NCBI GenBank assembly: GCA_951812955.1
Contig: OX638340.1
Span: forward strand, 3,232,001-3,296,000
Direction: 5' to 3'
Length of the DNA stretch: 64,000 nucleotides
DNA from: an uncultured Gemmatimonadota bacterium
GTDB taxonomy: Bacteria > JAAXHH01
Part shown: positions 1 through 46,238 of the stretch, piece after piece
Layout: every line of letters starts with the position of its first letter
Position numbering within the stretch: position 1 is the stretch's first letter
Program-made: the position numbers and the translations under genes
Notes under the pieces: generated by a model
Database searches by the model: none
Told to the model about the DNA's origin: nothing
Seen by the model: the letters and a program-made list of their open reading frames with translations, nothing else

Positions 1-153
1 AGACGATCGAGGACCTTCGCGTGAGACTGATGGACTGGCGTATGTCCAACGAGGACGAGAGCCGGGTCAGTTGGACTTACGAACGCCGCCCCGGATTCGG
101 GCGCAATCCCTTCGTGGCGTGACCGATCTTCCCCACGAAGTACCGGAGCCGAG

Positions 154-1002
154 ATGAGCCGGCTGTTCTTCCTGGCAAGGAGATTCGTCGCGGGGGAATC
201 CCTCGAGGCCGCTGTAGACGTCGTCCGGTCGTTGAACGACGCGGGACTCGACGTGACGTTGAACATGCTCGGCGAAGGCACCCTGGAAAGGGAAAAGGCG
301 GAAGACGCAGTCAGGCAGTATCTCGTGATGCTGGATCTGATCCGGGAGGGTGCGCTCCAGGCCAATATCTCCGTCAAACTCACCCATCTGGGACTGGACA
401 TCGACGAAGCGTACTGCACGGATAACCTGAGCCGCATCCTGGAGGCCGCGAAGGAGCGGGACATCTTCATCCGGCTGGATATGGAAGGTTCGCCCCATAC
501 GCAGCGGACCCTCGACATCTTCTACACCCTGTACGACCGCTACAGGAATGCCGGCGTGGTGATCCAGGCCATGCTGCTGCGCAGTCCCCACGACATCTTC
601 GTGCTCAACAAAATCGGCGCCCGCGTGAGGCTGTGCAAGGGATCCTACCGTGAATCCTCCGAACTGGCCCTGCAGCGCATGCCCAACATCCGCGGCGCCT
701 TTCTGTCCATTGCGGAACAACTGCTCAAGGACGGCCGTTTCCCCGCCTTCGCGACCCATGACGACTATCTGATCGAAGGCGTGACCCGGAACGCCGAGCG
801 GCTGGAGGTCCCTCGGGACCAGTTCGAGTTTCAGATGCTGTACGGCCTGCGTCCCGGATTCCAGAAGGAGATGCGCGCAAGGGGCTTTCGCATGCGGATC
901 TACGTGCCCTTCGGAACGGAGTGGATGCCCTACTTCTATCGTAGGCTCAGGGAACGCAAGGAGAACGTGTGGTTCGTCCTCCGGAACCTGGTCAGACGCT
1001 GA
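154..1002 (+). CDS. FAD-dependent proline dehydrogenase (monofunctional PutA-like)
   Basis: 282-aa ORF with ATG start preceded by GGAG. The translation resembles the proline dehydrogenase TIM-barrel family (LGEGT...ISVKLT...YVPFGTEWMPYFYRRL C-terminus). Confidence 0.75.
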   Translation: MSRLFFLARRFVAGESLEAAVDVVRSLNDAGLDVTLNMLGEGTLEREKAEDAVRQYLVMLDLIREGALQANISVKLTHLGLDIDEAYCTDNLSRILEAAKERDIFIRLDMEGSPHTQRTLDIFYTLYDRYRNAGVVIQAMLLRSPHDIFVLNKIGARVRLCKGSYRESSELALQRMPNIRGAFLSIAEQLLKDGRFPAFATHDDYLIEGVTRNAERLEVPRDQFEFQMLYGLRPGFQKEMRARGFRMRIYVPFGTEWMPYFYRRLRERKENVWFVLRNLVRR

Positions 1003-43023: not shown

Positions 43024-43557
43024 ATGAACATTACAATCCGGAAGATGACGCTGGCCGCGTTGATGATCGCGCTCATGACGCTGGCGACGCTGATCATTCG
43101 GATCCCCAATCCGGCTACGCAGGGATACATCAATCTGGGCGACGCCATGCTCATGACCATCGCCCTCCTCTTCGGCTGGCGTATCGGCGGCCTCGCGGGC
43201 GGTGTCGGTTCCGCCCTGGCAGATGCGCTGGGCGGCTACTTCATCTGGGCGCCGTGGACGCTCGTCATCAAGGGGATCGAAGGGATTCTGGTCGGAGTGA
43301 TCGCGGCATGGGGCTTCCGTGAAGGGTCCGGTCCCCGCCGGATCGCGGCCTTCGCCGCAATGGTCTCGGGCGGCGCATGGATGGTATTCGGGTACTACAT
43401 GGCCGGATCGGTACTGTTCGGAGGCGTCGCCGCGCTGACGGAGATCCCGGGGAACCTGACGCAGGCCGGGGTGGCAGTGGTGGTGGCCCTTCCCCTGTCC
43501 GTCCTATTGAGAAACGCCTTGAAACGGAGCGATTATGGAACTCTCGCACCTCGATGA
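43024..43557 (+). CDS. ECF-transporter S (substrate-capture) component, substrate unknown
   Basis: ~177-aa 5-6 TM protein with an S-component-like core (…NLGDAMLMTIALLFGWRIGGLAGGVGSALADALGGY…). Its 3' end overlaps moaC by 23 nt. Confidence 0.55.
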   Translation: MNITIRKMTLAALMIALMTLATLIIRIPNPATQGYINLGDAMLMTIALLFGWRIGGLAGGVGSALADALGGYFIWAPWTLVIKGIEGILVGVIAAWGFREGSGPRRIAAFAAMVSGGAWMVFGYYMAGSVLFGGVAALTEIPGNLTQAGVAVVVALPLSVLLRNALKRSDYGTLAPR

Positions 43558-44026
43558 AAAAGGACGTGTCCGCATGGTGGACGTGACGGAGAAACCGGTA
43601 ACGGAAAGGCGTGCGGTGGCCTACGGGGAAATAAGGGCCGCAACCGACACCATCCGGAAGATCTCCGCCGACGAAATGGGCAAGGGCGACGTGCTGACCA
43701 CCGCGAAGATCGCGGGCATCTCGGCGGCCAAGCGTACGGGCGACCTCATTCCCATGTGCCATCCCATCCCGCTGGACCACGTGGAGATCGACATTTCTCT
43801 GGACGAGGATGCGGCCAGGATCGGCATCCTTGCCACGGCGTTGTCATCGGGGAAGACCGGGGTGGAAATGGAAGCCCTGACGGCCGTCTCCGTGGCCGCC
43901 CTGACCATCTACGACATGTGCAAGGCCGTGGACCGGACCATGGAGATCGCTTCCATCCTGCTGGTGGAAAAGGAAGGCGGCCGTTCCGGAAGGTTTATTC
44001 GGCCGGGGTGGGAGGGGCCGGGGTAG
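43535..44026 (+). CDS. moaC: cyclic pyranopterin monophosphate synthase MoaC
   Basis: LSHLDEKGRVRMVDV...IPMCHPIPL...EMEALTAVSVAALTIYDM. Confidence 0.9.
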   Translation: MELSHLDEKGRVRMVDVTEKPVTERRAVAYGEIRAATDTIRKISADEMGKGDVLTTAKIAGISAAKRTGDLIPMCHPIPLDHVEIDISLDEDAARIGILATALSSGKTGVEMEALTAVSVAALTIYDMCKAVDRTMEIASILLVEKEGGRSGRFIRPGWEGPG

Positions 44027-44429
44027 TTTTCCTTATAGTGTTTTGAGACTGGCCCAGAACTATATTCGTAGCGCAGTAGTTGACTGTCTTGTTTACATAA
44101 TGAGCAAGGCACATACATGCCAATTTCGTCCTGATTGCAATAAGGATATATGATCTAAAATGTTTTCAGATAGCCCGTTCTAGGAGGTTTTCTAAACTAC
44201 CATTATCGAATTCTTAAAGATGGTTTCGCTTCCAACAGTTCGTGAGCGTATCGGATTCCAGACCTTCGACTCTTCCAACCCCCTTTAAAATCAGTCATGT
44301 ACTTCAGTTTCAAGAATTCCACTCTTTCGCCATACACATTTGGTTTTTCATAATCCCTCCAAAACATCCAACTTTCCAATTCCGACACGTCTTGATCCAG
44401 AAGATGATTTCTGGAAATATAGAGTTTGC

Positions 44430-44819
44430 CTACACCATCTTGTATCGAGCAGGTCCTTTCTTCCGAGCGGGAGGCAGTTTGGTTACAAAGCCCTGTTTGA
44501 CCAACCAGTTCATTGAAGCATGAACCAAGCTTCTTGACGATCTTTTGGGGTCGGCTTTTGTTTCCAACAGTCCGTTGGTTCGTAACATATGGAGTTCCTT
44601 GCAGAGATCGTCGGTATCCAATACCGAGCCGGGATGGGCAATAAACATCCGGCGGATACACTCTGTTGGGGTTTCTCTTTCAAAAAGTGTATTATCTGTT
44701 TCTGTGGACCGTGTGGCTTCATACTCCTTGTTCAATTCAAGGACGCCATTTAAACGATCTATCTCTTTCTCGAGCTCGGAAACTCTCTGTTTTACCCACG
44801 ATAAAAATGATTCATTCAC
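44430..44819 (-). CDS. hypothetical protein (N-terminal coiled coil), island-borne
   Basis: 129-aa ORF with AAAGGTGA RBS 6 nt upstream of the ATG and AT-rich codon usage; it overlaps another -strand ORF (44203..44661) in a different frame. Confidence 0.3.
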   Translation of the reverse strand: MNESFLSWVKQRVSELEKEIDRLNGVLELNKEYEATRSTETDNTLFERETPTECIRRMFIAHPGSVLDTDDLCKELHMLRTNGLLETKADPKRSSRSLVHASMNWLVKQGFVTKLPPARKKGPARYKMV

Positions 44820-44841
44820 CTTTCACCCCCGTGGAAAAGGA

Positions 44842-44870
44842 TTGACATAGATGACCAAACAAGATATCAT
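44842..44870 (+). promoter_or_regulatory. near-consensus sigma70 promoter TTGACA-N17-TATCAT
   Basis: Read directly; it points rightwards into the tRNA-like fragment and is divergent from the 44819 gene. Confidence 0.45.
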
Positions 44871-44893
44871 AATAGGCAGTTGGGAGTGAAACG

Positions 44894-44925
44894 AGGAAGC
44901 CCCGCCGGGAGTCGAACCCGGACCT
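44894..44925 (-). other. tRNA-derived 3' fragment (T-arm CCGGG-TTCGACT-CCCGG + acceptor 3' strand), no matching 5' half
   Basis: The plus strand shows ...gagtcgaacccgg..., the reverse complement of a canonical T-loop. The upstream sequence cannot pair as an acceptor or anticodon stem, so this looks like a partial att-site-like tRNA copy rather than a gene. Confidence 0.35.
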
Positions 44926-44996
44926 CACCCTTCGTGTGCAGTGGCTCTTTCCTTTAAGCTACGAGGCCCCTCGCTCTCAAACCTTCCAGCTACATC

Positions 44997-45039
44997 GGGT
45001 TGCCCTAGATCCTCCCAGATCAACGTACAGGGGCAACCC
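44997..45039. repeat. 9-bp perfect inverted repeat (gggttgccc...gggcaaccc) with 25-nt loop
   Basis: Read directly. Confidence 0.5.
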
Positions 45040-45672
45040 GACCTTCTAATATACATAACGACCATAAGATTGTCTGTCAACAGTTATTTCGTCGAGACAG
45101 TATAGAATTGCCTGTCCACACTGTTTACAGTAGACAACAGGCGTAATATCACAATAGCAAAGAAAAAGCGCAAGCAAAACAGTCAAGAGTGTTCACTGGG
45201 CAGAATCGGGGCAGAATCGTGAAAGATATCTGCCCGCACCGGCTACACCGGAACAGGTGGGAGTGTATCGTCCAAGAATAGGGCTTTGGAATAATGTCGT
45301 GAGACATGAGGACAAGAAAAATGGGTAAGTCGGTTAACCTACGAACGCTTGAGATTGATTACCTTAAGGCGGTAAATGACCGGGATCTAGCCGATCAGCG
45401 TGTAAGGGACCTAAAGCGTATCGCCCTACACCCCGTTCGTTGGCGAATTCATTCACAGCGAAATTGATGGCGTGGAATGGGAAACGAACTGGCAGCTACG
45501 GACACCCCGCTTGGCGGTAACTCGGAGGTCTATGCACTATGGTAGAAAAGTTGCCCGAGCAGTCTACAGAGGTGCTCACCAACTCTACCAACTAAGTAAA
45601 ACGGGCTTGGGCTGGACATGATTAGGAAGGCACATATCTCCTAAAGAACAGATCGATAGGCGATGTTTTTTC

Positions 45673-45700
45673 TTGACGTACTTTTAATCTTGCCTATATT
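45673..45700 (+). promoter_or_regulatory. argR promoter candidate TTGACG-N16-TATATT
   Basis: Good -35/-10 hexamers, 60 bp upstream of the argR ATG. Confidence 0.45.
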
Positions 45701-45705
45701 GCGTC

Positions 45706-45756
45706 CGTGCATGAATGGAATAATAATTCCTAATTATGGATAAATATTCATCGAAC
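45706..45756 (+). promoter_or_regulatory. ARG-box-like operator(s) (TGAAT…ATTC palindromes) overlapping argR 5' UTR
   Basis: tATGGATaaatATTCAt (45735..45752) matches the 18-bp ARG box consensus TNTGAATWWWWATTCANW with one mismatch. An upstream tgcATGAATggaataATaATTCC half-site-rich stretch is also present. Confidence 0.45.
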
Positions 45757-45761
45757 CGAGC

Positions 45762-46238
45762 ATGAACGCCAAGCACCAGCGCCAGGGAACCATACGATCA
45801 CTTATCGAGCGGGGGCACTTCCACACGCACAAGGAGGTGATCGCAGCGTTGCGCACGGAAGGGATCGACATCAACCAGGGCACACTGTCCAAGGATTTCA
45901 AGGAACTGCATGTAATCAAGATCCGCCTCGCCGACGGTCAGTACAAGTACGTGCTGCCGCGCTATTACTCGGTAGAGACGCAGGACGAACTGGTCGAACG
46001 GGAGATCCGGGATTTCGTCGTCAGCGCGGACGACGCGATGAATCAGGTCGTCCTGCACACCTCCGCCGGTCACGCGTCGGGGGTGTGCGAGGCGATCGAC
46101 CGGGCGGAATGGCCCGAGATCATAGGCAGCGTCGCGGGTGAGAATACGATTCTCCTGGTCACCAAATCGACCGATCAGGCCGGGAAGACGCTTAAACGCA
46201 TCAAGAGTATCATGAAGGAAAAGAGGGAAGGCACATGA
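45762..46238 (+). CDS. argR: arginine repressor ArgR
   Basis: Winged-helix N-domain (RQGTIRSLIERGHFHTHKEVIAALRTEGIDINQGTLSKD) and arginine-binding C-domain. Confidence 0.9.
   Translation: MNAKHQRQGTIRSLIERGHFHTHKEVIAALRTEGIDINQGTLSKDFKELHVIKIRLADGQYKYVLPRYYSVETQDELVEREIRDFVVSADDAMNQVVLHTSAGHASGVCEAIDRAEWPEIIGSVAGENTILLVTKSTDQAGKTLKRIKSIMKEKREGT

Follow-up and report, generated by a model that had tools for sequence, protein, structure and literature searches.

What fills the gap between moaC and argR in this genome, and is it the debris of a mobile element or a working gene? We examined this question in a window of 64,000 nucleotides (nt) from an uncultured Gemmatimonadota bacterium (contig OX638340.1). 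Positions are those of this window unless another locus is named, and the coordinates of the features are collected in Table 1. The original prediction had recognized in the gap an AT-rich insert with a tRNA-derived 3' fragment, a consensus promoter and hairpins, and had proposed either a degraded integrative element or the gene for a small RNA. We conclude that the insert is an island carrying a compact, horizontally transferred cassette on the minus strand, in which a structured RNA with a tRNA-like domain precedes an open reading frame (ORF) for a protein of 129 amino acids (aa). The RNA and the protein family co-occur over deep divergence and, judging from the sequences, change together clade by clade. 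The cassette is an undescribed variant of bacterial tRNA-mimic noncoding RNA with a dedicated winged-helix partner, rare but conserved. As to its role, we assign a probability of about 0.4 to the reading that it is a conflict-type RNA-protein module, that is, one resembling toxin-antitoxin (TA) or defence systems.

The 72-nt tRNA-like domain reads GGCCUCG-UA-GCUU-AAAGGAAA-GAGC-CACUGCACACGAAGGGUG-AGGU-CCGGG-UUCGACU-CCCGG-CGGGGCU-U on the minus strand. Infernal aligned it to positions 1-71 of the Rfam tRNA model (RF00005) with 37.7 bits, above the gathering threshold (GA) of 29 (E = 7.5e-6). Its acceptor stem, GGCCUCG/CGGGGCU, has seven pairs, two of them G-U. A D arm (GCUU/GAGC) with G18/G19 and a T arm with UUCGA are present, and the acceptor/T geometry is 7/5. 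At the position of the anticodon arm, CACUGCACACGAAGGGUG forms no 5-bp stem with a 7-nt loop; its minimum free energy (MFE) structure is an irregular hairpin, no U33/R37 is in register, and ARAGORN returns "tRNA-???" with a 4-base anticodon, "cacg". The element has the cloverleaf and the score of a canonical tRNA, but not the anticodon stem and 7-nt loop: its D/T elbow is intact and it has no usable anticodon loop.

The canonical T arm and acceptor 3' strand reported by the original prediction are therefore real, and its statement that neither an acceptor nor an anticodon stem could form holds for the abnormal anticodon arm only, since a 7-pair acceptor stem and a D arm exist. The idea of a partial, attachment-site (att)-like tRNA copy is contradicted by a full-length element of 37.7 bits, by the lack of an integrase or second copy in the window, and by purifying selection shared with the linked ORF. 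Because a complete tRNA call was obtained, which the prediction itself had named as the outcome that would defeat the remnant interpretation, that interpretation fails. A search of the 64-kb window for a second copy of the 3' half gave none at up to three mismatches (0 expected). A genuine tRNA-Glu(UUC) gene in the same genome (31436-31510) has no encoded CCA, so the missing CCA after the tRNA-like element is uninformative.

In the window and in six of seven related metagenomic loci, whose proteins range from 85% down to about 25% identity, the strand that bears the ORF also bears a tRNA-like element 80-115 nt ahead of it. Three of these loci (L001, L002 and L013) constitute one clade with the window and share an identical order of promoter, hairpin, closing stem, tRNA-like domain, spacer and ORF; their elements score 38.9 bits (L001 and L002) and 34.9 bits (L013). 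Elsewhere, the element of L010 (4830-4904, 96 nt upstream of the ORF) scores 53.1 bits and has a 9-nt anticodon loop, and that of L014 (889-961) scores 55.2 bits with a 6-nt loop. The L012 element is partial or weaker (22.2 bits), with a clear T arm and an 8-nt loop. The 72-nt element of L011 (974-1045) has no anticodon arm, and its match is to the tmRNA model (37.6 bits), confined to the tRNA-like part of that model. None of the elements has a 7-nt anticodon loop, and the loops of the window clade measure 8-10 nt.

These loops bear on whether the RNA might be an irregular but working tRNA, regulated by the ORF product, that decodes by frameshifting or by reading four bases, or that donates an aminoacyl group to a non-ribosomal reaction. 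Such a tRNA would be expected to score above the tRNA threshold and to keep its elbow nucleotides, as this one does; ARAGORN proposes a 4-base anticodon, host tRNA genes likewise have no encoded CCA, and Mukai et al. (2017; PMC5389517) observed irregular tRNAs close to TA loci in metagenomes from soil. We nonetheless judge it very unlikely, because loops of 6, 8, 9 and 10 nt together with the armless L011 element admit no single decoding solution, the arm in the window has no 5-bp stem and no U33/R37 in register, and a conserved extended helix encloses the acceptor end, with an A-A mismatch at 1:72 in L013. The irregular and allo-tRNA-like genes (PMC5389517) and Bacillus cereus tRNA-Other are comparable in having a noncanonical tRNA shape and probably no part in normal decoding. 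Their acceptor/T geometry is 8/4 or 9/3, however, their loops have 7 nt, and some of them can be charged, whereas the present RNAs have 7/5 geometry and abnormal loops, are enclosed by a conserved stem, carry a 5' hairpin and come with a fixed partner ORF.

Some features hint at the origin of the scaffold. The 3' anticodon stem and variable loop, GGGUGAGGUC (the 10-nt segment GGGTGAGGTC at 44925-44934, minus strand, compared with L015 755-830), are identical to those of Escherichia coli tRNA-Thr(GGU), and the L010 element receives the label tRNA-Thr(CGU) from ARAGORN. Descent from tRNA-Thr genes is thus possible for several clades. An exact 20-mer of the anticodon-like arm, searched against the genome, metagenome and viral contigs, gave two chance matches (L003 and L004) with no tRNA context, and a search within the molecule for a conserved target of the anticodon-like loop found none.

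The tRNA-like domain is part of a larger RNA of about 170 nt, the structured portion of which ends near 44876. Folding of 45048-44868 (minus strand) sets the cloverleaf on top of a long bulged stem made by the 25 nt before it and about 21 nt after it, with MFE helices GUAG/CUGC, UGG/CCA, UGAGA/UUUCA and CGAGGG/UCCUCG. In L013, the corresponding stem consists of GAUGCG/CGCAUC, AGCAC/GUGCU and GAUGACAG/CUGUCAUC, with an A-A mismatch at pair 1:72 and an internal loop after it. Pairing of the closing stem is maintained despite quite different sequences in L013, L010, L014 and L011. In every case, the leader/trailer duplex abuts the acceptor stem, at -10 to -27 kcal/mol versus -2 to -15 for five control tRNA genes. 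The inverted repeat that the original prediction gave as 9 bp is an 11-bp perfect repeat (44995-45005 and 45031-45041) and constitutes the conserved 5' hairpin of the RNA. The outer stem of this hairpin is GUCGGGUUGCCC/GGGCAACCCGAU in the window and GCGAUGCCCCUG/CAGGGGCAUCGC in L013, which amounts to two double (compensatory) changes, and a further compensatory change in L013 converts a C-G pair of the T stem to U-A.

Conservation is unevenly distributed over this RNA. The four loci of the window clade share 89-97% identity in the 72-nt core, whose D arm and anticodon-like arm form a 37-nt block that is invariant although the ORFs share as little as 51% identity and their synonymous divergence (dS) is saturated. 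The hairpin and closing stems are just 34-46% identical between the window and L013, with pairing intact. We relied on per-sequence folds and a covariance model (CM) alignment, because RNAalifold based on MAFFT misaligns the L013 hairpin and closing stem. The CM, built from four sequences, finds a single copy in the 64-kb window and aligns L014 and L010 over the full length of the model, including the closing stem. In the CM alignment, 94.6% of cells are paired and 20 of 31 pairs exhibit double changes, values that none of 500 shuffles reached; sliding the pairing partners lowers pairing to 40-54%. No tandem repeats were found in 44876-45042.

Beyond the generic tRNA match, no Rfam family matched the RNA above its threshold. 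In architecture, its closest known relative is, by our comparison, Yrn1 of Deinococcus radiodurans, where the two ends pair into a long stem bearing a tRNA-like module whose "anticodon" loop has 6 nt (PMC4201824). A bacterial Y RNA of the Yrn1 or YrlA type that partners a Ro60/Rsr protein encoded elsewhere in the genome would explain this likeness, as well as a weak full-length alignment to the Deinococcus_Y_RNA model. We consider this highly improbable: the alignment scores 20.9 bits against a GA of 80, no YrlA match appeared at E <= 10, and the GNCGAAN0-1G motif is not conserved (by inspection, the nearest sequence, GAGCGAGG, has one mismatch and is absent in L013). YrlA genes are almost always located within 4 kb of rsr, but no TROVE gene was found within 4 kb in the window or L001, and the RNA tracks the winged-helix ORF instead. 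The resemblance to Yrn1 and to the YrlA RNAs of Salmonella and Mycobacterium thus consists in a noncoding RNA of about 100-200 nt with a terminal bulged stem, D/T-arm features and a dedicated protein gene. The differences are that the RNA is partnered by a 129-aa coiled-coil winged-helix protein rather than a Ro60/TROVE ring, that the long stem extends the acceptor stem rather than replacing the anticodon arm as in YrlA, that the GNCGAA motif is missing and the Rfam score far below threshold, and that the surroundings are TA/defence hotspots rather than rsr-rtcB loci. The tRNA-like domain of tmRNA also has an acceptor stem and T arm without an anticodon arm, and the L011 member has a G3:U70 pair; unlike tmRNA, the present RNAs have no mRNA-like reading frame or pseudoknots and measure 72 nt versus about 360 nt, and the L011 score of 37.6 bits is below the threshold of 47. 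To our knowledge, tRNA mimicry by bacterial noncoding RNAs has so far been represented mainly by tmRNA and Ro60-bound Y RNAs.

The ORF begins about 77 nt downstream of the tRNA-like domain, and the spacer of about 55 nt between the RNA and the Shine-Dalgarno sequence holds an antisense promoter (P2). It is a real gene. Close homologues share 85% (P0002), 67% (P0003) and 51% (P0020) identity with its product, the ratio of nonsynonymous to synonymous divergence (dN/dS) among close members is 0.09-0.16, and dS is saturated between the window and L013. The tRNA-like core and the linked ORF are under strong purifying selection. In the AlphaFold model of the protein (pLDDT 81.6), residues 3-36 form a long N-terminal helix, which a disordered linker connects to a domain (residues 51-128) with the order H1-S1-H2-H3-S2-wing-S3, a winged helix of the Fur/PadR/MarR/HARE-HTH-like kind. 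The N-terminal coiled-coil helix is predicted to be dimerising, which would make the protein of dimeric type. Comparison with Pfam, PHROG, PADLOC and PDB sequences yielded no significant family; the best Pfam scores (MksE, 0.0087; PadR, 0.015; HARE-HTH, 0.057) are insignificant, and each occurs in one to three of ten members. A profile search of 1.84 billion representative proteins gave ten matches in total, of which the distant ones are 23-31% identical. Two of these distant members, P0026 (269 aa) and P0029 (245 aa), have two tandem winged-helix units with one N-terminal helix, an arrangement that recalls tandem winged-helix (KITE/MksE-like) proteins.

The two parts of the cassette appear to belong together. 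The recognition helix and the RNA core have hardly changed between the window and L013, and each is different in other clades; because of this co-invariance within a clade, we infer that the protein may recognize its cognate RNA or the gene for that RNA. In L009, a clean deletion of about 138 nt takes out exactly the tRNA-like element and leaves intact the ORF, whose product is 79% identical to that of L012. Because this ORF survives loss of the RNA, the protein seems to be tolerated alone, as would be expected for a regulator or an antitoxin-like neutraliser and not for a toxin, and the active component would seem to be the RNA.

A sigma70-like sense promoter (P1) precedes the RNA and may use either of two -10 elements; the promoter scan also lists an overlapping CAGACA-17-TATATT. 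Equivalents are in place at the other loci: TTGAC(A/T/G)-N17-TATC(G/A)T in L001 and L013, TTGCGA-17-TATATT in L010, and TTGCAC-17-TATATA in L014. A box upstream of P1 is conserved in the window, L001 and L002 and not in L013, and is possibly an operator. The TTGACA-N17-TATCAT promoter of the original prediction, here P2, is also real. It lies between the 3' end of the RNA and the ribosome-binding site of the ORF, and counterparts recur at the same position in L002 (TTGACA-17-TATCAT), L001 (TTGACT-17-CATATT), L013 (TTGACA-17-TAACAT) and L010 (TTGACT-16-TATACT), with spacer sequences that vary. A structured RNA is indeed encoded, as had been suspected, but not under this promoter: P2 is antisense and is aimed into the RNA, which is on the minus strand under P1. 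The RNA gene of L001 is flanked by a 22-nt inverted repeat made up of the P1 and P2 regions, and in L011 an intrinsic terminator between RNA and ORF occupies the place of P2. No sense promoter was found between the RNA and the ORF in the window, so the ORF is probably transcribed by read-through from P1 against the head-on P2.

This arrangement would also suit a cis-acting leader, in which the tRNA-like structure has no function in trans and serves as a processing or stability element in the 5' untranslated region of an autoregulated winged-helix transcription factor, perhaps as an RNase P or RNase III entry site or as a translational operator. RNA and ORF are co-oriented with no recognizable sense promoter between them, the window clade is without a terminator, the long leader/trailer stem resembles rRNA-type processing stems, and the protein fold is typical of DNA-binding regulators. 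On the other hand, a 37-nt block that is invariant across loci with 51%-identical ORFs exceeds the constraint expected of a processing signal, the L011 terminator separates the RNA from the ORF, the L009 ORF is kept after precise loss of the RNA, and the antisense promoter directed at the RNA is retained. We regard a purely cis-acting role as unlikely.

The boundaries of the island were established by comparison with four contigs of close relatives (L005-L008). Blastn homology to these sister genomes, at 87-89% nucleotide identity in the flanks, stops at 44019 and restarts at 45665, so the island spans 44020-45664. The AT-rich insert described by the original prediction is borne out by composition (GC content of 0.461 versus 0.594 in the remainder of the window, with a local drop from about 0.62 to 0.40-0.49), but its right end was set too far. 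Because 45665-45760 (about 96 bp) is conserved with the sister genomes, it is the native argR promoter/operator region and not insert. The argR promoter in this region (45673-45760) is followed by an AT-rich palindromic, ARG box-like sequence. In the sister genomes, the same slot holds an 829-bp segment with a PIN gene (131 aa) and an AbrB-like gene (71 aa), which we take from their sequences to be a VapBC-type pair. No remnant of this pair was found in the window island, and the slot appears to be an exchange site for small addiction or defence modules.

Foreign AT-rich DNA in a syntenic slot is what a decayed integrative element, with the tRNA piece as its att scar, would also leave, and an imperfect 21-nt direct repeat (18 of 21 matches) lies near the two ends of the island. 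Of the earlier suggestion, the foreign nature of the insertion holds. Decay and scarring are hardly credible, however, for a full-length, strongly selected element with a linked ORF in several unrelated contexts. No ORF of the 1.6-kb island has a Pfam or PHROG match to an integrase or recombinase, the window has no second att copy, and homology between cassettes stops at the ORF stop codon and just 5' of P1, not at the 3' half of the tRNA. The repeat copies (44095-44115, ACATAATGAGCAAGGCACATA; 45616-45636, ACATGATTAGGAAGGCACATA) sit about 75 bp and about 30 bp inward of the two boundaries and could be insertion scars or chance. A similar sequence, AGGAAGGCACGTA, occurs 3' of the ORF in L001 (6575-6587), where a match that good is expected by chance.

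The other cassettes are likewise AT-rich relative to their own hosts and reside in diverse surroundings. That of L001 is in a 1.35-kb island amid unrelated metabolic genes, with SGL, PfkB and radical-SAM genes as neighbours. Those of L010 and L011 adjoin hsdR of an HsdS-Abi_C-HsdR operon, that is, a type I restriction-modification (R-M) system. The HsdR proteins of the two loci are 88% identical, and the adjacent cassette members differ (31% identity over the winged helix) and have opposite orientations. In L010, a gene for a 789-aa SIR2-protein kinase fusion and a PIN gene come after the cassette. A search for a consistent third gene beside the cassette found none. Because of the L010/L011 swaps and the replacement of VapBC in the sister genomes of the window, we infer that the cassette behaves like a unit exchanged among TA and defence hotspots. 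In L009 and L012, an IS1-like transposase gene is directly upstream, and L009 additionally carries phage-like genes (DUF5049, methyltransferases, HNH and GH108). Tblastn with the ORF and P0031 found no relative in phages or plasmids, viral contigs searched with A2, P0031 and P0028 contained no relatives, and the RNA itself, compared by blastn with phages, plasmids and E. coli, gave only short T-arm matches to phage tRNAs.

On the conflict-module reading, to which the probability of about 0.4 applies, the RNA would be the active part: a tRNA mimic, embedded in or excised from the long stem, that engages a tRNA-binding factor. Nucleases, modifying toxins, RNase P and the ribosome are candidate factors; a tRNA body that keeps its elbow and has a disabled anticodon would be well fitted to engage them, and the RNA could serve as a decoy, sensor or poison. 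The dimeric winged-helix protein would be the cognate partner, binding either the RNA or the RNA gene with its two facing promoters, and the antisense promoter (in L011, the intrinsic terminator) would balance RNA and protein output, influence RNA turnover and restrain read-through. As a whole, the cassette would be selfish or engaged in conflict, whether of the toxin-antitoxin, the abortive-infection or the anti-nuclease decoy type. tRNAs have become a central battleground of phages, toxins and defence systems. A bolder form of this reading, which we put forward tentatively and think somewhat doubtful, is that the cassette is the founding case of a new class of two-component RNA-protein conflict modules, in which a tRNA mimic acts as effector, decoy or sensor under the control of a cognate winged-helix protein and an antisense transcript. 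In that form, the body and elbow of the RNA would be preserved so that tRNA-binding enzymes or the ribosome recognize it, and its anticodon loop would be disabled on purpose. The RNA could, for example, act against anticodon nucleases or tRNA-modifying toxins, or be a translation poison, and each clade would have recruited a different tRNA scaffold.

In gene logic, the nearest known systems are, as we compare them, the type III TA systems (ToxIN, CptIN and TenpIN). Like the cassette, these have an RNA gene directly ahead of a small protein gene, in the same orientation and the same transcription unit, and some means of reducing transcription into the protein gene; they are likewise small, AT-rich and mobile and are found in hotspots or defence islands. 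The cassette differs in having a single tRNA-like fold rather than tandem repeats, a winged helix rather than an endoribonuclease, and, in L009, a protein that persists without the RNA. A type III-like system of reversed polarity, in which the winged-helix protein acts as toxin, for instance through a block on DNA transactions, and is directly bound by the upstream RNA as its antitoxin, would draw on the ToxIN-type order of RNA, terminator or throttle, and protein under one promoter. The occupation of a VapBC slot by the cassette and the joint diversification of the RNA and the protein recognition helix would also fit. Nevertheless, the RNA lacks tandem repeats, the protein has no ToxN-, CptN- or TenpN-like or other nuclease domain, and an unprotected toxin is hard to reconcile with the intact L009 ORF that survives clean deletion of the RNA; we consider this quite unlikely. 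Nor does the cassette have the features of a type I TA system: P2 overlaps the noncoding RNA and not the ORF, and the ORF encodes a soluble 129-aa winged-helix protein, not a small hydrophobic toxin.

Several observations weigh against assigning the cassette to the conflict modules. All functional steps are deduced from sequence, and the family is tiny (10 matches among 1.84 billion proteins; 8 loci), so that context statistics are anecdotal. No PADLOC defence model, nuclease or other effector domain, or consistent third gene was found, and residence in a hotspot is no proof of a defence or TA role. A winged helix usually belongs to a plain DNA-binding regulator, and the cassette might then be simply a small gene for such a regulator, preceded by an elaborate leader. 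As to the RNA itself, single-sequence MFE z-scores are modest (-1.5 to -4.3), and the covariation counts come from a CM alignment that is fitted to its model and has an E. coli tRNA as one row.

If the conflict-module reading is true, the cassette represents a new RNA-based player, a conserved tRNA mimic that moves with its own small protein among VapBC, type I R-M/Abi and SIR2 hotspots. We found no description of this cassette in a literature search confined to open-access papers. Because the cassette is only about 700 bp, its function is directly testable by cloning.

Table 1. Coordinates of the cassette, its flanking features and the compared regions of related loci
Feature	Position	Strand	Details
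Sense promoter P1	45048-45080	-	-35 TTGACA 45080-45075; -10 TATGTA 45057-45052 (spacer 17) or TATATT 45053-45048
Upstream box GGACAG...CTGTCTCGAC	45081-45126	-	Conserved in window, L001 and L002 (alignment columns ~229-270; blastn 45076-45126 vs L001)
5' hairpin H1	44994-45042	-	12-bp outer stem, internal loop, inner 5-bp stem, UGGG-containing loop; inverted repeat and MFE folds
Closing stem, 5' strand (leader)	44969-44993	-	Prolongs acceptor helix; MFE
tRNA-like domain	44897-44968	-	RF00005 37.7 bits; ARAGORN "tRNA-??? (cacg)"
Closing stem, 3' strand (trailer)	44876-44896	-	MFE
Antisense promoter P2, TTGACA-N17-TATCAT	44842-44870	+	Promoter scan, 11/12 matches
129-aa ORF with Shine-Dalgarno sequence	44430-44830	-	Shine-Dalgarno GGGGGUGA 44830-44823; GTG 44819; stop included, 44430
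moaC (flank)	43535-44026	+	Pfam MoaC 9.2e-56
Native argR promoter/operator	from 45665; TTGACG-16-TATATT at 45673-45700	+	Promoter scan; conserved with L005-L008
argR (flank)	45762-46238	+	Pfam Arg_repressor domains
VapBC-like PIN and AbrB-type pair in moaC-argR slot	L005 3181-3788; equivalent slot in L006-L008		
RNA deletion comparison	L009 2545-2723 vs L012 1400-1725		
Type I R-M operon and, in L010, SIR2-kinase and PIN genes	L010 1-4509 and 5534-9343; L011 1706-6549		Abi_C-domain gene between hsdS and hsdR (PrrC-like position)

In the window, the cassette has moaC, an ECF transporter gene, DUF420, UbiA, argR and argC as neighbours. Within the island, about 120 nt upstream of the sense promoter, the 11-mer GGGCAGAATCG occurs as a perfect tandem duplication (45198-45219) that, on inspection by eye, is not seen in the upstream region of L001.

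Other ORFs of the island were considered and set aside. A 152-aa ORF (44203-44661, minus strand) lies in another frame, overlaps the 3' half of the 129-aa gene and runs into unconserved island sequence; it is probably spurious, because it has no family match and neither L001 nor L002 contains anything that corresponds to its unique part. The short ORF at 45321-45467 named in the original prediction exists, within an ORF at 45306-45467, and has no Pfam or PHROG match and no counterpart of its region in L001. The small plus-strand ORFs at 45306-45621 as a group have no family matches and lie in regions without a counterpart in L001 or L002, and we treat them as unsupported. This class of RNA is easily missed, because its members are annotated as "tRNA-???", pseudo-tRNA or att scar, with antisense ORFs called across them, as in L013. 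There, a public gene call of 127 aa (106-489, minus strand) runs antisense over the tRNA-like RNA and hairpin and is almost certainly an annotation artefact. Spurious antisense ORFs similar to this case are present at 44936-45105 of the window.

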